Position numbers and translations under genes: made by a program. Shown here in pieces: positions 32,811-46,299 of a stretch of DNA of 64,000 bases (position 1 is its first letter; each line of letters opens with the position of its first letter). The notes under the pieces are model-generated. The model was not told the DNA's origin, searched no databases, and saw nothing but the letters and a program-made list of their open reading frames with translations. The DNA comes from Tricharina praecox. Taxonomy: Eukaryota. The stretch is taken from the NCBI RefSeq assembly GCF_024521635.1, contig NW_026250431.1, positions 434,001 through 498,000 of the forward strand, given 5' to 3'.

Positions 32811-34190
32811 ATGTTCATGCAGTCAATCCGTGCCGCCCGTGGCAGGTTCGCCCTCGCCCCGTCGTCGCAATTCAAGTTGTTTGCCGCCAGGGCCATCACC
32901 ACCGATGCTGCTAGTGCCAGTGTCGTAAAGGGCTCCGTGCCGAGTGTGCGTTTACCCGATAGGAGCTCTCGGGGGAGGATGAATGCGGGAGAGCATCTAC
33001 TAACTACTGGTGTTCGTTGGTGGGGTATAGGAAGACGATAAACCCTTCACAGTCAAGCTCTCTGACCAGTCGTTCGAGACTTACGAGTTGGACGGTCCTA
33101 GTAATGAGTTGGAGATCACCAAGAACGACCTTCGGCAAATGTACTACGACATGACGACTATTCGGTACGTTGAATCCGGATTGGCGATGGTATCGGTGCT
33201 TGCGAGGCGGGGTTGACGTGTATGTGTAGTCGATTGGAGATGGCGGCCGACAAGTTGTACAAGGAGAAGAAGATCAGAGGTTTCTGCCACTTGTCGACCG
33301 GACAGGAGGCCATCGCCACGGGTATCGAGCATGCCATCACTAAGGAGGATGCTGTCATCACCGCGTACAGATGTCACGGATTCGCCTACCTCCGCGGATC
33401 AACAGTCAAGGCCGTCATCGCCGAGCTGCTGGGACGCAAAGACGGAATTGCCTTCGGAAAGGGTGGCTCCATGCACATGTTCTGCAAGGGCTTCTACGGT
33501 GGTAACGGAATTGTCGGAGCTCAGGTTCCCATTGGTGCCGGTATCGCTTTCGCGATGAAGTACCAGGACATGAAGAACACTTGCTTCGCCCTCTACGGTG
33601 ACGGTGCCGCCAACCAGGGTCAGGTTTTCGAGGCCTACAACATGGCCAAGCTTTGGGACATCCCCGCCGTCTTCGCATGTGAGAACAACAAGTACGGAAT
33701 GGGAACCGCTGCCAGCCGTGCCTCGGCTCTCACCGAGTACTACAAGCGTGGACAGTACATCCCGGGTATCAAGGTTAATGGTATGGACGTTCTGGCCGTC
33801 AAGAAGGCGTCCGCTTTCGCCAAGGAGTACACGGCGTCCGGCAACGGCCCGCTCGTGATGGAATTCGTCACCTACCGTTACGGAGGCCACTCCATGTCCG
33901 ACCCCGGCACGACCTACCGCACCCGTGACGAGATCCAGAACATGCGTTCCACACAGGATCCCATCCAGGGTCTCCGCAAGGTCATCCTCGAGTGGGGCGT
34001 CCTTTCCGAGGAGGAGCTCAAGCAGCTCGACAAAGAGGCTCGCGCTGCCGTCGACAAGGAGGTTGCTGAGGCCGAGGCGTCGCCCCCTCCGGATGCGGAC
34101 ATGAAGACGCTGTTCGCGGACATCTACGTGCCCGGCAGCGAACCGAAGTGGATGAGGGGGAGGACCGCCGAGGAGACCTACTACTATTAA
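32811..34190 (+). CDS. PDA1: Pyruvate dehydrogenase E1 alpha subunit (exons 32811-32945, 33031-33164, 33230-34190)
   Basis: IRGFCHLSTGQEA, GKGGSMH, YGDGAANQGQVFE, TYRYGGHSMSDPG; N-terminal mitochondrial presequence. Confidence 0.98.
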
Positions 34191-34590: not shown

Positions 34591-35150
34591 TGTATGACTG
34601 GCGATTTGTGACGAGACGATAACCGAATCGATGGGATATTGGCGGTGTTTTTCCTTTGCTGTCGTTTGTCTCCTGTATGTTATTGGAGAATCTGCACGTT
34701 CATTTTTCGGTGAGGGGACGCGGAGAGCAGTGGGACCGAAGGACTCGTATCAACTGGTCCTATGCAGATGACTTTGCGTTTCCTCAATGCTTCTGTCCTC
34801 CAGCCACCGTGCTGCCCATTCCATAAGGCCGTTTCTCTGGTTAAATCTTATTTCGTCCGCATCGGCTCCGGCGAGCGGGGGTCGACTTTGCATTTCCTCG
34901 ATGTTTCTTTCCTCCAGCCACCGCTGCCCGTTCCCCAACGCCGTCTCTCTGGTTAAATTTTGTTTCGTCCGCATCGGCTCGGGCGAGCGGGGACGGATGT
35001 TGTGGTATGACTGGACTGGAGATTTGTGACGAGATGATAACCGAATCGATAGGATATTCGCGGTGGGTTTCCTTTGCTGTCGTTTCTCTGCTGTAAGTTT
35101 TTGTTGGAGCTTTGTCGTTTGCATTTTTCCGGGAGGGGGACGGGGAGAGG
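34591..35150. repeat. Nested duplication A-B-B-A (A ~34591-34727 and ~35005-35149; B ~34771-34884 and ~34885-34991)
   Basis: gatttgtgacgaga.gataaccgaatcgat twice; tctctggttaaat...tttcgtccgcatcggctc.ggcgagcgggg twice. Confidence 0.85.
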
Positions 35151-36284
35151 GATATACATGGTGTGGTTTCGGATGCGGCCAACCGAAATGAACCGGGTTC
35201 GGTGCTCCGGGCGAGCGGCGGGATCGAAGCACTCGCATTAAGTTTCGGCAGGTCCTGGGTTTCCGTCCGTCCGGCCCTCCTGTCGTTGCTCCTCGGGATA
35301 TCCCAGGACTACACCGGGCATCATGGCAGCTGCCATATTTGATTTAATAGTGCTGCCTTGTTTCCCTAGCCCCTTGGAGCGGACTCGAAAGGTGCGGCCA
35401 TCAGGCGGCGGGCGCACCGACGTTTGACAGGCGGTGTATATCTCACGTCTAGAGTATATATCCAGGTCAACGGGATCCGAGGGGTTTCGCCGTCGCCGTC
35501 GCCATCGCCGCCGTCCGTCCGCCCGTCCGTCCTAGCGGGCATTGTGCTGGCAGAAACGGTATAGTTCAACGCCTCGTCGCGATGTTCACGATCTCATCAC
35601 GATAAGCGACCTCGGAGGAAACCCGCTTTGGCTGGGGGCACTCCACTCGAGGTGGAGGCGGGGATAACAAGGTATGTAGATATTTGGTGAGGTGGGTGGA
35701 AGCGGCGGCCTGGTGGGGTTTTCGCTGGGAGACTCGGCAGGAACCACAATTGCTCTGCGAATCCGCCCACACTGCAACACAATCCGTAGCTCAAATATTC
35801 TAGGATTTTGATATGTTTGATTCCAGATGTAAAGACGTCTCATACTGGTATGTACATATCTCGGATGTGATCTTGTCGTTCAGATCTTGGCCCCGCAGAT
35901 GGGGCTTCTCGCCCACTCACCCACGTACCGAGATCGTCGGGCAATAGTTAATCCGCACGAACATTACTGGCCACAGGTATTTAGTAATCGCGACCGTCTG
36001 GTGAGCAGGCTTGCACCGAAGCGGGAATTTCCACTAGAATATCGCCTGCTGAAGCAACGATCTGCACAAAGCGGCATTGTTTTCGCGTCTCAGAGTAGAG
36101 TACCGTAGGGTTCCTACATGAATGCACCTGTATCTACACACCTAGGCGAATACGAGGCACTCGCGGTCGGTACCCGCCCCCGCACCCTTCACCGTCACCC
36201 CCCGCAAGCCCCACCTATCGCCCCATCCCTATTATCGCCCGAATCCCATACTAGTTATCGCACTACTCCTTCATCTATCACAGC

Positions 36285-38811
36285 ATGGCCGGCAGGAAGA
36301 ATTTCTTCGCCGTTCGATTCGGACGGAAGCCTGGCATCTACACTTCATGGTACCCGTCCCGGAAAGTGACCGATAGGCAGCGGGAGGGGCTAACTTGGAG
36401 TTGAAGGGCCGAAGCACAGCCGCAGGTCGAACGATTTCCCGGCGCAGCCCACAAGGGCTTTGCGACTCGCACAGAAGCGGAGAAGTGGTTGGGGTATGAC
36501 GTTTATGCGAATAGTTCTCCGCCCGAGGTTGTTGACCTCACGGATGGTGATGGTGATGGTGCCGGTGATGGCGGGGACCGTGAAACCCCTGCGGGTGCGG
36601 TGGTGCCGTCGATTGGGAGGGAGTACGCGCCCCCGGACCCCCTATCGCGGCCGCGGAAGCGAACGCGTCAGGCAAAGCTGGCGAGTGGACGCGACGATGA
36701 AGAAGGGGACAGCAGTCCTTTCTTCTCTTCGTCGCTGCCTCTGCCCAAGCGAAAGAGGGCCACTGCGAGGGTGGCTGTTGATCTTACGCAGGATTCTGAT
36801 TGTGATAGTGGTGATGATTGTGTGCTGTCGGCGCCGCCACCACGGCGGAAGCCCGAGCCCAGTGGGGATAGTCGCCTCCGCCACGCGATTGACCAATCAT
36901 CTTACGGCGAGGACGATTGGGCGGCTCCTCGTGAAACCCCGGAAGCTCCTGCGGTGCCGCGGCCGACCATCCCGCTTTCACCTGAGCAGGACCACGTGCT
37001 GCAGCTGATCCTCGACGGAAGAAACGTCTTCCTCACCGGACCTGCGGGAACGGGAAAGTCGTTGATCCTGCAACACGTCAAGTATCATTTGTCAAAAAAG
37101 AAGATCAGGCATGCCATCACCGCGCCAACAGGGGTTGCGGCGGTACAACTCGGCGGAAGCACCATCCACAGCTTCTCGGGAGTGGGACTCGGCGAAAAAG
37201 GAACGAAGGATTATATCGGCATGTCGTTGACTAAGAAGACGGCAATCGGACGCGCGAGAAACAAGTGGCTCGAAACGGACGTGCTCATCATCGACGAAAT
37301 CTCGATGCTGAATCCTGATTTGTGGGAGAAATTGAATGCCATTGCGAAAGGCATTCGACGCAACGAGCAATTCTTTGGCGGAATCCAGGTGATTGTCTGT
37401 GGAGACTTTTTCCAGCTGCCACCCGTCCCTGACAGGGTCAGAACATGCCAGTATTGCGGTAGGCTTCTTCCCCCAGTCACTCGTACTCTGTTGGCAGGTC
37501 TTAATGCATTCAGGCCATATTCTACCGAGAAAAGGTCAACGCACCTACGAGCCGACTCCCCCGAAGAACGCGTTCGCCGCAGTCGGAATCGACCCGAAAA
37601 CGTGGTCTACATGTGCCAAATGCAGTCACCCCTGGAACGATGGCCTGAAGTACGTCTTCCAGACCAGGTCATGGAAGGAAGCGCAGTTCGCCACCGTTCT
37701 CCTCAGCAAGGTGCATCGTCAACGGGAGCCAAAATTGGTTGAGATGTTGACCCAGATCAAGCTCGGCGTCCTCGATGAGGAGATGGCAAACTGTCTTTGG
37801 TCTCTACGTCGCCCGTTGGAGGTGATCGAAGGTATCAAGCCTACAAGGCTCTACACCCACCGAGCGAACGTTCAAACCGAGAACCAAGTCGAGTTCGGAA
37901 AGATCCAAAAGCCGGAGTTCGTTTTCGAGGCTATGGACACGGGGAAGATAATCATTTCCAAGAATAAAACCAGATGGATGGGGGAATCGGAACTCGAGAT
38001 TCCCTTCTTCACCAACCTGCAGTCATCCAAGACGTTGAAACTGAAGGAGGAATCGCAGGTGATGCTGTTGAAGAATATCAATCCCACCAGTGGACTGGTG
38101 AACGGCTCCCGCGGCATCATCGAAAACTTTGAGGAGTACACATTGGAGGGACTACTCGGAATCGCTGCCGACGGTGACCGCGCCATGTTTGAGAGATACC
38201 ACGCCGAAAACCACGATACGAAGACAGGAATGGTGAATCTCCCTTGCGTACGCTTCATCGGGCACGACGCGGATATACCGATGGGCGCGAGAACCGTCCT
38301 TCCCGCTTCATGGACGCATGAAAGCACGCTTCCGGACGGGTCGACACAGAAGCTGGAGCGTGTCCAGCTGCCGCTCGCGCTTGCCTGTAAGCCCACTCAT
38401 CCCACTTGCCCTTTCTCTCCCTCTCTCTCCACGCCACTAATACCATGAAAAGGGGCCGTAACAATCCACAAAGCACAGGGCCTATCACTCGATTTCGTAT
38501 CCGTCGACATCGTGAAAGCATTCGAGCCAGGCCAGGCATACGTCGGTCTCTCCCGCTGCCGTTCGCTGGACGGACTACAGGTCCTGGGCGATAGCCTGGA
38601 GGGAATGCGGCGGGCTATCAGATGTTGTCCTACGGTCGCCGCATTCCATCGCATCGTGGTGCAGACGTGGGAGCACGATTGGAACAAGCGGCGGCGCGCG
38701 GGTGAAGTGAAGGCGGATGGAGAAGAGGGGGAGGAGGAAGATAAGACCGAGGGGGAGGGTGTGCAGGAGGAGGTCAAGTCGGCTTATTTTGTCGATCTTC
38801 AGGGCTCTTAG
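36285..38811 (+). CDS. Pif1-family 5'-3' helicase with N-terminal RNase H1 hybrid-binding (Cauli_VI) domain, ~782 aa (exons 36285-36349, 36407-37458, 37514-38386, 38453-38811)
   Basis: GPAGTGKS, APTGVAA, TIHSFSG, DEISM, GDFFQLPPV, HRQ, GLVNGSRG, QLPLALAWAVTIHKAQGLSLD, GQAYVGLSR; spliced N-terminus MAGRKNFFAVRFGRKPGIYTSWAEAQPQVERFPGAAHKGFATRTEAEKWL. Confidence 0.92.
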
Positions 38812-40374
38812 TCTACGGATGTCTGCGATGGTTTCTGTGGCTCGTTTATTCGACGACCGACGCTGGAACGCAGGGCGTTTTTTGGGCGTTTTTTGGGCTT
38901 CTTTTGGGCTTCTTTCGGGCTTCTTTTGGGCGTTGTTCTTTTGGATGTTGGATTATCATCTGGGAACAGGGAATTCTTGAAGGTTGCTGGATCCGACATG
39001 GTGTCGCGGTGGATCATGGTTCGTTTATGAGTCCGTAATTGAAGGAATTTCGTACGGAAACTCATCAGATTATTGACTGTCAAAGTTGGACGTACAGAAA
39101 TGATGGTCCTGAGGATACATAGCCTTTCAAGTGGTTAAGGTGCAGATGTGATGTACATAGGGGGAAATTTGAGGTAACTGTTTCTCCACATCTATCTCAT
39201 GCAAAACACCGAACCGAAAGCCAGTGGCCACGATCCAAATCCCCACTGAACGGCCAGCACCGCCTCGACATCGTTGAGTAGAGTAAGACCTAGGTACTAT
39301 TACACTGCGCAAGCCGTGTGCCGACTTTCTTGAAGGAATGAGCAGCCAGTTGGCGGTACTTGACTGCTTCCAGGCCACTTGACTGGGCATGATGTGGACT
39401 TCAAACCTTCCTTCACCTTCACCTTCACCGGTATTTCAGAGAATGATGCCGGTGGGTCCGCTTTGTCCTTGTCTTTCTTTGTAAGTCGGGATCGATGGCA
39501 TTCCCGATCTACGGTAGCTACCTATTGGTATTCTTTTGTCGGACGTCCGGCGGGGATACCTACGGTATGTACTACGGAATGGATGGAGGTTGGATTACGA
39601 CCTCTCCCCCGCCGGCTGATGATCGTTGTCGAGTCCAGGCCGCACCCTTTGTCCGGGCCTCTTTGTTGTGGACTTTCGTAGAAGTGGATTTCTGTACATA
39701 CTGTTGACCAATGCCCGAGCCGCTTTGTTTTTTATCCATTCTTTTGATCGGGGAATCCGATGCTTCGTTTTTGGCGTTTCTTTGTTTGAAGCTGGAGCAG
39801 ACGAGTGACCGTGATGATGCAGAGCCGGAATGCTCTCAGCGTGGGGGTGGTTTTCTCATCCGGTCCTTTGTGTGCACATATTCTCGTCCCGATACTGGGC
39901 GGGTATATATACCGACACCGCAAGCGGCATCAATGATCCAGAAAACCAATACCGTTCCTCCGCCGCTCCAGCTGCGAGAGACACACAACCGGCGATACCC
40001 CAGCCCAGCAATGCAACACTACAGAAACGCCAGCATCCTCTCCAGCGGCCTCTAACACCACGCCCCCTTGGGCCCTTGTTTGTGGAAAGCCGGCAGGTCA
40101 GACATTCATTGCACTCGCGACTTCCGACATGTCCACGTCCACTCTCCCAGACTCGAGACGACGGGACGACGGGGCCCTACCTACTCTACACATCCCCGGC
40201 CAATCGAAAGCCTTAACGGCCGTGTTTTACAATACTTTGTCATTGCCGCCAGGAGGGGCAGGGGGAGATCACTGCTGCTCGACTCGACAGATAACCTCTT
40301 GCGGTTGGTTCATGGTTCCGGTGAACGAACGCTACTTATCCGACACGTCTGCGCATCCCCGCACTGCGCACTGT

Positions 40375-44188: not shown

Positions 44189-44931
44189 CTAACCGATCGA
44201 GAAGCTTTCGCCGCAGCCGCACTGTTCCTCTATCTCTCTATTAGCCACACTCCACCAGCAACCCGAGCGGGAGGGGGAAACCTACTGATATTAGGATTCT
44301 TAAACACAAACCTCGCCGACAATTTATCCTCGACCCAATCCATCTCGCTCCCAATGATACTAAACAGCGCATGGGAATCAATGAGGACCCTAACACCATC
44401 CTGCAGCACCTCCTCATCGAACTTCCCGGGCTTGTCCACGTACTCCAGGTGGTACGCCAAGCCCGAACACCCGCGGTTCTTGACCCCCACCCGGATCAGC
44501 TTCGGTGTCGGATCCGACATCAGCCCCCGCAGCTGCGCCACCGCCGGAGATGTCAATGACATCGCCGCCTTGCGTGGGCGGAAGCGCGTGCGCGTTACGG
44601 GCGCGGATGCGGGCGCGGGCTTGGAGGCTGTAGATGCGGGCAAGGGCGTGGGTGCGGGAGGGGGCGCGCCGGATAGGGAGTGTTCCCGCGACGGCAGCGT
44701 CAAAGATGACTCCACGCCGCTGCCCCGCGGCATAGGCACGTCGGTGTGCAGTGTCGGCGACGTGTGCGTGTGCGTTTGTAGCTGGCGCTTGGACGAGCCG
44801 ATGGAGGAGGAGTTTGAGTATGCTGCTCGGAGGGCGGGCGAGCTGTTGGTGGTGGCGGAAGAGGTGGCGGATGTGAAAACGGCTCGTCGCAGTGACATCA
44901 CTGGCGCGGCTAGGCGGCGGAGGGACGGCAT
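44189..44931 (-). CDS. ISA1: Mitochondrial iron-sulfur cluster assembly protein Isa1 (exons 44931-44286, 44229-44189)
   Basis: RVGVKNRGCSGLAYHLEYV, IIGSEMDW, FKNPNI/KEQCGCGESF. Confidence 0.96.
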
Positions 44932-46299
44932 GATGTGGTGTTCGGTTCGGCGGGCGGGGGTAGATATCTAGTCGTCGAGATCCTCGGACTGTATGGTATG
45001 GTATGAGTGGTGGTGATGGGGTGGTATGCGTCGGTCGGTGTATGGGGACTCGGGGGATAAGTCGTGGAGGACGAAGAATCAGAAACGGGTGGGCTGAGTT
45101 GCTTTTGGGCGGCCGGAGATTGCCGAGAGAGCCTCCCGCTTACGTGAACCTTGGTCCGGTGCGCCAATCAGCGCGCCCACATCTCTAAGCAGTGAGCACC
45201 ACCACCGTAGAAAGTATGTGTAAGCATTCGACATCGGAACATGGAAGGTTGTCCGACTGTCCGGCTGCCAGTCGCGTGCACGATGTGGCAGCCACGGCCA
45301 ATTGACGAAACACCTTCCGATTGTCCAATAATTGCGATAAAACACCTTTTACCTGTCAAATAATTTCAAAAGAAATCTCACGACATCAAGAAACATCTAA
45401 AATCTATCGTCCAAAATTCTCAGAGTTCTATAACCGCAGTGGCTCTTGCGACAGAAGAAGGTTTGCGGAGTAATAGCGTTTTCACCGGTTATCGCATCCT
45501 TCTCCACCACCATTTTGCCACGCCAGTGACGCCAGCGACGCCACCGCTTCAAACCGACCTCTTCCGGTCCAAACATGTGAACTCTAACTTGAGACTTTCA
45601 AACATAAAGCCAGCCGCTCAGACAGTATCGGAGATGTGTAATGTTCTCGTGATTGTTAGATGACTGGAAGCTAGGTTTTCTCAAGCGGTGCTTTTCGTGT
45701 GAAAGCGGCAGTGGCCGCTCGCATGTTGCGCGCGACTGCTGCGCATGGTTTGAGTTACAAAAGTCGCATAGAGTAAAAGTTAGGATAGAATGGCTTTTCT
45801 TCATCTCTACCTACGAGTACACATGTCTCACCGTACCGTAATGACTCCTTTAAGAAGTGCCATTTTGTTCGAGGGTTTTGCGCTTGTCGCATAGATGATT
45901 GCATGAACAGAAAGTAGAGCAAAAAAAAAACCGCTGCATTTTTGTTTCTTCTGTGGATCTTCGTTGAGCACTAGAGCGTGTTCGGCCACAACAAAGGTGG
46001 CAGCAGCAAAAATTCTTCGGCCCCGTCTATTTTTTTTTGTTCGGAGAGCTTGTATTGTGTTTGTGTCCTGCTCAGATGTTTGGCTCATTCATTGGTTGGT
46101 GACTTGTCGGTACACGTACCTGGAGTAGTTAGATGTGCAAATGGGAGAAGTGGGCATGGTTCTGGAGCAATACATCGCGAGATTCGAGTCATATAACTAC
46201 AGTCCCATGGGCCATGGCGAGATCTACGCCTTATCCACAGTTGCATCCCCAAAACACAAGCTCACCCCTCCGCCCGCTCCTCAGCCTGCGGGATCCTAT

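Follow-up and report, generated by a model that had tools for sequence, protein, structure and literature searches.

In the window analyzed here, that is, the whole stretch of 64,000 nucleotides from Tricharina praecox, a five-exon gene encodes a protein with an N-terminal hybrid-binding domain (HBD) of the RNase H1 type, about 110 disordered residues, and a Pif1 helicase core with a four-cysteine insertion. From this layout and the model of a relative, we lean, by a modest measure, toward the explanation that this 720-amino-acid helicase would be directed to RNA:DNA hybrids and would remove them by unwinding and not by cleavage. The architecture itself is not rare: it is already catalogued, though functionally uncharacterized in the literature found, and the Tricharina gene is one further example of it, not the first.

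Gene structure and transcript-like contigs

The locus is best explained as an expressed nuclear gene of five exons (Table 1), on the evidence of contigs from two coded runs of two studies (X1 and X2), whose library type is unrecorded, so that they can be called only transcript-like. All four GT..AG joints, including 36349/36407, are present in one contig per run (2602 nt in X1 and 2383 nt in X2). The earlier note had proposed that a 65-nt first exon is spliced onto the helicase reading frame through a GTACCC donor, a GCTAAC element and an AAG acceptor; these signals are in the sequence as described, and the contigs of both runs join exactly there, the joint being written in both as 36348/36406 (cut +1). 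The acceptor reads AAG/G at 36406/36407, intron 1 splits a tryptophan codon as TG/G, and intron 4 interrupts the tryptophan codon of the WAVTIHKAQG motif. The start codon is the ATG at 36285, with no upstream in-frame ATG in the frame that is open from 36255 on, and the stop codon at 38809-38811 had been placed correctly before. The spliced coding sequence of 2163 nt is open throughout its five exons and gives 720 amino acids in place of the 782 implied previously, since the 186-nt in-frame intron 2 had been overlooked; the four-cysteine insertion in the helicase core had been omitted as well.

Table 1. Features of the HBD-Pif1 gene, in positions of the window
Feature	Positions	Strand	Remarks
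5' UTR part of exon 1 (minimum extent)	36154..36284	+	X1 contig starts at 36154, X2 contig at 36227
Exon 1 coding, 65 nt	36285..36349	+	Met1 to first two bases of Trp22; first half of HBD
Intron 1, 57 nt	36350..36406	+	GT..AG; GCTAAC branch-like site; in-frame TGA
Exon 2	36407..36622	+	Second half of HBD (to ~36491), then acidic Gly/Pro-rich linker
Intron 2, 186 nt	36623..36808	+	GT..AG; in frame, stop-free; joint 36622/36809 in X1 and X2
Exon 3	36809..37458	+	Remainder of linker, helicase domain 1A, first CxxC (37446-37457)
CxxC...CxxC insertion, ~76 residues	37428..37710	+	Between helicase motif III and VHRQ; contains intron 3
Intron 3, 55 nt	37459..37513	+	GT..AG; phase 1, in Gly codon after first CxxC; joint in X1 and X2
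Exon 4	37514..38386	+	Second CxxC (37612-37623), domain 2A, 2B/SH3-like domain (~38023-38130)
Intron 4, 66 nt	38387..38452	+	GT..AG; CTAAT branch-like site; joint 38386/38453 in X1 and X2
Exon 5 coding	38453..38811	+	Last helicase motifs WAVTIHKAQG and YVGLSR; KRRR cluster; acidic tail; stop TAG
3' UTR (minimum extent)	38812..39100	+	X1 contig extends beyond 39100; X2 contig to 38973

Intron 2 was also considered as a repeat-mediated assembly artefact, which was ruled out because its joint shares no letters between the two sides and its ends are GT..AG. Its retention would lengthen the linker by 62 residues, and with them would come its sole two basic clusters; more speculatively, optional retention could thus supply a segment resembling a nuclear-localization signal; the X1 and X2 contigs carry no isoform proportions, and the parts that they leave uncovered, including intron 2, are uninformative on retention. 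The same silence on isoform proportions, together with the unrecorded library type, leaves some room for a non-functional fusion, in which the joint of exon 1 would be confined to an aberrant or low-abundance transcript, or in which the gene would be decaying. We regard this as very improbable, because the joined form was assembled in both runs, the 720 codons are open with all helicase motifs intact, and the metagenome locus L001 has the same split HBD, with an intron at the same position and in the same phase as intron 1, ahead of its helicase. Three metatranscriptome runs are nearly devoid of the sequence words of the window, and two of them, X3 and X4, gave no placement on it. Within the 3' UTR, an 11-nt tandem repeat lies at 38873-38938.

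The hybrid-binding domain and the Pif1 motor

The identification of the N-terminus as an RNase H1-type HBD, made in the earlier note, is upheld by the Pfam family PF01693 (Cauli_VI; 44 profile positions, gathering cut-off 21), with which the two halves of the domain were compared separately. The exon 1 piece matches profile positions 2-22 (27.7 bits, E 3.3e-6) and the exon 2 piece positions 18-44 (28.5 bits, E 1.8e-6); thus each half passes the cut-off alone, and splicing at the tryptophan makes them contiguous in the profile. The evidence for the fold comes by proxy from P0005, a relative 38-45% identical to the Tricharina protein, whose N-terminus matches the HBD of human RNase H1 (chain 3bsu_A, E 9.4e-9) and the N-terminal domain of the yeast enzyme (1qhk_A, E 4e-6). 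AlphaFold models the P0005 HBD (residues 4-61) at a pLDDT of ~95 and in the order strand-strand-helix-strand-helix, with strands at 8-13, 18-20 and 38-42 and helices at 24-31 and 45-61. As in RNase H1 (human 3BSU, yeast 1QHK), an N-terminal HBD is tethered by a flexible linker to the enzymatic part (linker residues 64-157 of the P0005 model have a pLDDT of ~30), but the partner is a nuclease in RNase H1 and a helicase here. Another difference is that the Tricharina protein has no mitochondrial presequence before the HBD, since the domain begins at residue 6.

HBDs also bind double-stranded RNA, less strongly than hybrids. In human RNase H1 the hybrid is contacted by W43, K59 and K60, and the substitutions W43A or KK59/60AA compromise hybrid binding, according to passages of PMC10639055. 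The Tricharina HBD keeps the equivalents of W43 and K59, two of these three contacts, and differs from RNase H1 in having glycine at the position of K60 and histidine at that of F58, the latter being found also in at least seven other HBD-Pif1 representatives and in the metagenome locus L002. Across the alignment of the clade, the F58/K59 pair is Y/F/H followed by K/R and then by a small residue, so that its members generally lack a counterpart of the second of the two human contact lysines. The W43 equivalent is not conserved in the HBD-Pif1 group of mushrooms, and the domain may thus serve in another way in at least some of these fusions.

These substitutions, and the mushroom group lacking the tryptophan, are what could be expected if the protein were a generic replication or repair paralog of Pif1, its HBD serving as a non-specific anchor on double-stranded RNA or DNA or as a protein-interaction module, and R-loops being of no particular concern to it; G-quadruplexes, forks or telomeres could then be its targets, as in other Pif1 proteins. 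Such a role would also fit the description of Pif1 N-terminal regions as modular specificity modules in part of a 2018 preprint (10.1101/163188). We consider it possible but rather unlikely, as both halves of the HBD score above the Pfam cut-off with the tryptophan and one lysine kept, fusions of this kind occur in three helicase clades or more, and in other proteins the catalytic domain of RNase H is joined to Pif1, which suggests hybrids as a common theme.

The motor is a Pif1-family (SF1B) helicase, for which 5' to 3' unwinding is predicted. Its identity, also claimed before, is confirmed by matches above the gathering cut-offs to PF05970 (PIF1; 116.5 bits versus 25.9, on the exon 2/3 reading) and to PF21530 (Pif1_2B_dom; 45.1 bits versus 23.9, on the exon 4 piece), whereas exon 5 gave weak matches to UvrD_C_2 and Herpes_Helicase, both under their cut-offs. 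The helicase motifs are all intact: Walker A GPAGTGKS (from 37038), DEISM, GDFFQLPPV, VHRQ, LVNGSRG, WAVTIHKAQG and YVGLSR, and the stretch ending in FFGGIQV ahead of GDFFQLPPV resembles the Pif1 signature expected between motifs II and III and may correspond to it. The four pieces scanned gave no match, at E values up to 10, to PF00075, the catalytic domain of RNase H; the Tricharina protein is not an RNase H. The structural comparison agrees with this assignment: in the PDB, the P0005 model (pTM 0.66, core pLDDT mostly >85) is matched best by chains of Pif1 (E down to 2.3e-40), with target-normalized TM-scores of 0.82-0.90 to 7otj, 6hpq and 5fhh, and a Helitron transposase (7lcc) as a distant match at rank 39.

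Canonical Pif1 proteins (S. cerevisiae Pif1 and Rrm3, C. albicans Pif1, human PIF1) share with the Tricharina protein the families PF05970 and PF21530 and the set of motifs, at an identity of about 30%. Their N-terminus is purely disordered, whereas in the Tricharina protein a folded HBD, as modeled in P0005, is predicted to take its place, and they lack the insertion of about 76 residues with four cysteines that follows motif III. The PF05970 alignment ends at profile position 157, where the insertion starts. The four cysteines are invariant in the alignment of the clade, and a Pfam scan of the insertion returned no family match; more speculatively, the insertion could be a zinc-ribbon-like element that binds zinc and offers an additional contact with nucleic acid.

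Distribution and ancestry of the fusion

Both Cauli_VI and PIF1 were found in 21 of the 150 best representatives of clusters at 50% identity, and in only one of the 150, the Orbiliomycete, was the HBD found together with the four-cysteine insertion. Beyond the clade of the Tricharina protein, HBD-Pif1 proteins occur in mushrooms (Volvariella, Mycena), the dinoflagellate Durusdinium and the green alga Mesostigma, and the HBD of a Schizophyllum Pif1 was matched by our own HMM only, not by Pfam. Most of these other fusions have the same domain order, but they lie in other helicase clades and are without the insertion; some add G-patch, UDG, BRCT or RING domains. Altogether, the Pif1 proteins with an HBD are spread over at least three separate clades of helicases. 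A related arrangement, in which Pif1 is followed by a C-terminal RNase H catalytic domain (PF05970 plus PF00075/PF13456), was found in the metagenome proteins P0068, P0070 and P0085; these likewise tie the Pif1 motor to the biology of RNA:DNA hybrids, but with a nuclease instead of a reader, and their clade adjoins diatom Pif1.

The earlier note had also allowed that the architecture might turn out to be widespread and already described. The first part is borne out by its frequency in public proteomes, and for amoebae the passages of the 2018 preprint mention PIF1 proteins whose accessory domain is described as "RNase H1-like RNA binding" (10.1101/163188), but no description of the fungal forms was found. 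Our literature search on Pif1 with HBD or Cauli_VI returned no functional study of the fusion either: the papers joining Pif1 and the hybrid binding domain were reviews and R-loop work, none of them, judged by title, on the fusion, and Cauli_VI with helicase led to plant-virus work only.

Quick LG+G4 trees, built from rows picked by hand, place the Tricharina protein in a distinct clade (13-14 rows, SH-aLRT 99-100) that is separate from the canonical one of fungal Pif1/Rrm3 (36-37 rows, SH-aLRT 96-99), which includes the Pif1 and Rrm3 of Saccharomycotina and the Pif1 of Pezizomycotina. This placement agrees with the previous description of the gene as a non-canonical Pif1 paralog, and the statement that yeast Pif1 and Rrm3 lack the HBD holds for the listed Saccharomycotina Pif1, which have no PF01693 in the precomputed Pfam annotation. 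The named members of the clade are Orbiliomycetes and Tuber, and Tuber aestivum is the sole named Pezizomycete that our searches found in it, which suggests that the gene is dispensable, or has often been lost, or has been missed by gene models.

This patchy occurrence among named fungi, in a clade outside canonical fungal Pif1, could also be read as the capture of an HBD-Pif1 of Helitron-like or Nucleocytoviricota type, serving the replication of the element or kept as a recent passenger. An Atlas cluster named "Ribonuclease H1 N-terminal/PIF1-like helicase" has 53 members, 82% of them viral (mostly giant-virus), and a fungal screen counts both PF05970 and PF01693 as associated with transposable elements (PMC10799480), its supplement giving them singly and not as a pair. 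Nevertheless, we judge capture to be quite unlikely. Four spliceosomal introns interrupt the gene, two of them at conserved positions (intron 1 as above, and intron 3, whose position and phase are the same in L001 and L002) in relatives that are only 33-48% identical; it is flanked by housekeeping neighbors, the genes for PDH E1-alpha and for an Fe-S assembly protein; and a Pfam scan of its pieces showed neither Rep (HUH)/Helitron_like_N nor any other domain of such elements. Moreover, the presumably viral HBD-Pif1 proteins P0147 and P0207 form a clade of their own that is not sister to that of Tricharina.

Proposed action on RNA:DNA hybrids

Enzymes of the Pif1 family move 5' to 3' and can unwind hybrids of RNA and DNA, and their direct action on R-loops in cells has been argued mostly from yeast genetics and from the unwinding of RNA:DNA in vitro. 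For the Tricharina HBD-Pif1 helicase, the targeting of R-loops is a reasonable inference from its domains. By docking on an RNA:DNA duplex, such as that of an R-loop, a primer or a similar hybrid, the HBD would raise the local concentration of the motor there; the motor could then load on the adjoining single-stranded DNA, translocate 5' to 3' and strip the RNA. Hybrids would in this way be unwound and not cleaved, and the HBD anchor would lose its site as the substrate vanishes. The presence of HBD-Pif1 proteins in at least three helicase clades, taken with the Pif1-RNase H fusions, provides an argument of the Rosetta-stone type for a link with hybrids.

The best experimental precedent for this combination of a generic Pif1 motor with an accessory nucleic-acid-binding module is the Pif1 of Thermotoga elfii, in which, according to part of the 2018 preprint, a C-terminal WYL domain tunes the affinity for the substrate and couples ATPase activity to unwinding (10.1101/163188). 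The WYL domain, from a bacterium, lies at the C-terminus and has single-stranded DNA as its ligand, whereas the Tricharina HBD is a putative reader of duplex hybrids and is N-terminal and eukaryotic.

The repeated fusion of Pif1 with an HBD, in fungi, algae, a dinoflagellate, amoebae (from the printed mention) and a cluster of mostly giant-virus proteins, constitutes comparative evidence for a link between Pif1 and R-loops, and the fusions are ready-made proteins in which the reader could be deleted or mutated to test the link of Pif1 with hybrids. We also envisage, as a tentative reading that is on the doubtful side, that several of these features belong together. The Orbiliomycete/Pezizomycete clade would then be a third ancient fungal Pif1 lineage beside Pif1 and Rrm3, defined by the N-terminal hybrid reader and a zinc-ribbon insertion and kept only in early-diverging Pezizomycotina; its helicase would be dedicated to stripping hybrids and would leave the RNA uncut as it clears R-loops or RNA primers, and the exitron-like in-frame intron, with both basic clusters of the linker, could set its access to the nucleus through splicing. 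If this were true, the independent origins of HBD-Pif1, in three helicase clades or more, would be natural evidence that the direct removal of hybrids is a core job of Pif1 motors in vivo. To the Pif1 motor, the fungal clade adds the conserved four-cysteine insertion.

Gene model and transcript-like contigs

The gene at 36285..38811 (+), which encodes a Pif1 helicase with an N-terminal RNase H1-type hybrid-binding domain (HBD), is laid out as the earlier note had described from the sequence, with an ATG at 36285, a 65-nt coding part of exon 1 ending in TCATG, and a 57-nt, frame-keeping intron that contains a TGA and has a GTACCC donor, a branch-like GCTAAC and an AAG acceptor at 36404-36406. 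The predicted junction was borne out by two sequencing runs from two studies, X1 and X2, whose library type is unrecorded; each provided one long contig (2602 nt and 2383 nt) that aligns to the window as five blocks with four GT..AG joints between them (table). With four canonical introns gone and 5' and 3' untranslated ends present, both contigs look like cDNA-derived sequence, although any library type assigned to the runs is a guess. The earlier observation stands confirmed, with a refinement to the gene model: exon 1 and its junction stood, but a 186-nt intron at 36623-36808 had been missed. With all four introns removed, the CDS is open over 2163 nt (720 aa), and no in-frame ATG lies further upstream in the open frame, which therefore leaves no room for a mitochondrial presequence.

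The missed intron 2 is in frame and stop-free, and its retention would add 62 residues (782 aa). All the basic clusters in the linker, two NLS-like ones, are encoded there. On its sequence, intron 2 has the features of a putative exitron; the X1 and X2 contigs hold the spliced form only. Nearby, (GATGGT)n at 36543-36574 encodes the Asp/Gly run of the linker and is also matched by short X1 and X2 contigs. Two of these have very high depth, and the two longer contigs, of about 450-500 nt, run on into GT-rich sequence; the matches are probably low-complexity cross-matching to other transcripts. Further repeats are a tandem 11-nt unit, GGGCGTCTTTT, in 5.5 copies in the helicase 3' UTR (38873-38938), and a 112-nt unit in two tandem copies (87% matches) at 34770-34992, between the pyruvate dehydrogenase E1-alpha and helicase genes. 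The former gene shares 85% identity with Pyronema and Trichophaea, 84% with Geopyxis and 80% with Morchella and Tuber, so a Pezizomycete is the most likely origin of the window; in the 39-44 kb stretch from the helicase to the Fe-S gene, the one ORF tried had no family match.

Features of the window, of the spliced protein and of the human-equivalent HBD positions
Feature	Position	Strand or location	Detail
Pyruvate dehydrogenase E1-alpha exon	33174-34190	+	PF00676, 397.5 bits
Joint 1	36349/36407	+	X1 and X2 contigs; the predicted junction
Joint 2	36622/36809	+	X1 and X2 contigs
Joint 3	37458/37514	+	X1 and X2 contigs
Joint 4	38386/38453	+	X1 and X2 contigs
Fe-S cluster biosynthesis protein	44233-44967	-	PF01521, 50.7 bits
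HBD	residues 6-50	spliced protein	
Linker	about 51-160	spliced protein	Asp/Pro/Gly-rich
Helicase core	from about 160	spliced protein	
Walker A	residue 171	helicase core	
DEISM	residue 256	helicase core	
GDFFQLPPV	residue 292	helicase core	
76-residue insertion			CxxC at 307, CxxC at 344
VHRQ	residue 377	helicase core	
LVNGSRG	residue 505	helicase core	
WAVTIHKAQG	residue 602	helicase core	
YVGLSR	residue 631	helicase core	
KRRR cluster and acidic tail		C-terminal of YVGLSR	
Human Y29			Phe in window
Human W43			Trp in window
Human F58			His in window
Human K59			Lys in window
Human K60			Gly in window

Domains, hybrid-contact positions and a proxy structure

Both families expected from the first reading, Cauli_VI (PF01693, the HBD) and PIF1, were found above cut-off in the window protein. 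PF01693 matched the exon-1 reading at profile positions 2-22 (27.7 bits) and the exon-2 reading at 18-44 (28.5 bits); against the curated cut-off of 21, each half therefore passes alone, and the splice, at a split Trp codon, renders the two matches contiguous. Such paired matches are far more than chance would give. The Pfam scan also placed PF05970 (PIF1, 116.5 bits) and PF21530 (Pif1 2B domain, 45.1 bits) in the same gene and, over the pieces of its reading, detected neither an RNase H catalytic domain nor a Helitron Rep domain. The four-Cys insertion, which follows helicase motif III (window 37428-37710), is covered by no Pfam family.

Equivalents of human RNase H1 positions (table) were assigned from the 3bsu alignment and a family alignment. 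Y29 and F58 are also taken as contact positions of the human HBD; HBD-Pif1 proteins often have His in place of F58 as a natural variant. Hybrid binding by human RNase H1 is impaired by W43A or KK59/60AA (PMC10639055). Structure was approached by proxy, by folding the Orbilia relative P0005, not the window protein, from a 39-row alignment (mean pLDDT 73.6, pTM 0.66). The model predicts an HBD at residues 4-61 in the order strand-strand-helix-strand-helix (pLDDT about 95), a linker at 64-157 (about 30), a confidently modelled helicase core, and an insertion whose Cys-bearing ends (about 80-88) would enclose a disordered loop (338-356). Pif1 structures were the top PDB matches of the predicted fold, and the first 60 residues matched the human HBD chain 3bsu_A (E 9.4e-9).

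Placement among Pif1 proteins and shared introns

A word-indexed search among longer proteins with the exon-2/3 reading as query gave at least 11 proteins with PF01693 and PF05970 together among the 120 matches listed, and a six-protein profile gave at least 12 with both among 120 further matches listed. Group A (nine named Orbiliomycete species, Tuber aestivum and metagenome and Logan proteins) has members of 570-1071 aa that bear the Cys insertion, in which four Cys are invariant in a six-sequence alignment; group B (Volvariella, Schizophyllum, Mycena and further proteins) is about 650 aa long and without insertion. Pif1-like proteins that lack an HBD, from Pucciniomycotina (Puccinia, Sporobolomyces, Phenoliferia) and some protists, have looser insertions rich in Cys. 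The searched collection lacks the window protein itself; its closest relatives there were Tuber and P0128, at 45-46% identity.

For the trees, 81 of 229 proteins were hand-picked to represent groups A and B, other insertion-bearing forms and canonical Pif1 (fungal, animal, protist and bacterial); exclusion of six that did not match the Walker-A pattern left 75 rows and 510 columns, and a second tree added 16 rows (91 in total), both being quick LG+G4 trees with SH-aLRT support only. Group A held the window protein in both trees (13 rows with support 100 in the first, 14 with 99 in the second), and this group lay outside the canonical fungal Pif1/Rrm3 clade (37 rows with support 99, then 36 with 96), in agreement with the non-canonical paralog proposed earlier. 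The neighbours of group A are other forms that branch deeply and have Cys-rich insertions (Pucciniomycotina, Synchytrium, protists), their mutual order unsettled. In both trees group B is nested in the canonical fungal clade, adjoining Rhizoctonia, and a third HBD-bearing set, P0147 and P0207, forms a clade of its own; with HBD forms in three tree positions, the fusion of HBD and Pif1 motor has thus arisen on at least three occasions. The HBD was seen in 9 of the 14 group A rows; among those without it, P0009 begins within the last helix of the domain, and P0008, P0127 and P0128 are ORF calls on 2.6-7 kb contigs.

Three of the 80 loci in a metagenome scan (L001, L002 and L003) were group-A-like. 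In L001, which has the helicase further downstream, a short GT..AG intron containing a CTAAC site interrupts the HBD at the same Trp codon and phase as in the window gene, whereas in L002 the HBD runs without a break (PF01693, 76.2 bits) and precedes the helicase. Intron 3, in phase 1 at the Gly codon directly after the first CxxC, is common to the window, L001 and L002. The identity of these relatives to the window protein is only 33-48%, so the introns they share are old, and this speaks for vertical inheritance of a host gene.

Spread of the architecture and its possible role

When 1.84 billion cluster representatives were searched exhaustively by profile, 24 of the best 150 returned had the domain according to a custom HBD profile, once (1/24) at the C-terminus; Pfam assigned PF01693 to 21 and PF05970 to all 24 of them. 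A three-part HBD-G-patch-Pif1 architecture was present in 4/24 (P0451 and three others), and the HBD and Cys insertion coincided only in the Orbiliomycete representative, 1 of the best 150. Among the named members are a second gene of Volvariella, Mycena citricolor, the dinoflagellate Durusdinium trenchii and, from the algae, Mesostigma viride. The ESM Atlas contributes a cluster of 53 members whose name refers to both domains and which is 82% viral (Nucleocytoviricota), as well as a PIF1-UDG cluster from giant viruses; P0207 combines HBD, PIF1 and UDG. BRCT or RING additions are single cases. In Volvariella volvacea, P0016 and P0382 are distinct HBD-Pif1 genes on one contig, four locus tags apart (AX16_002573 and AX16_002577).

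The HBD-Pif1 architecture is catalogued and recurrent, yet uncharacterised. The literature search found no paper on the Pif1 and Cauli_VI pairing and no functional study of an HBD-Pif1 protein; by title, what was found for Pif1 with "hybrid binding domain" was reviews and R-loop papers. The earlier note had allowed for a widespread and already described fungal form: the architecture is recurrent, but no description of the fungal clades was found in the literature searched. The really undescribed parts are the clade-specific Cys insertion and the in-frame intron 2. In a fungal screen, both Pfam families are classed as TE-associated, though not as a pair (PMC10799480). A 2018 preprint mentions amoebal PIF1 proteins with an RNase H1-like RNA-binding accessory domain, and shows experimentally that a bacterial Pif1 is tuned by a different accessory domain, WYL (10.1101/163188). 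The best-supported explanation, towards which we lean slightly, is that the HBD would read RNA:DNA hybrids while tethered to a Pif1 motor that unwinds them. A separate arrangement was observed in the metagenome proteins P0068, P0070 and P0085, Pif1 forms of about 950 aa with an RNase H catalytic domain at the C-terminus (PF00075, 33.7 bits; PF13456, 69.5 bits), which adjoin diatom Pif1 proteins in the tree.
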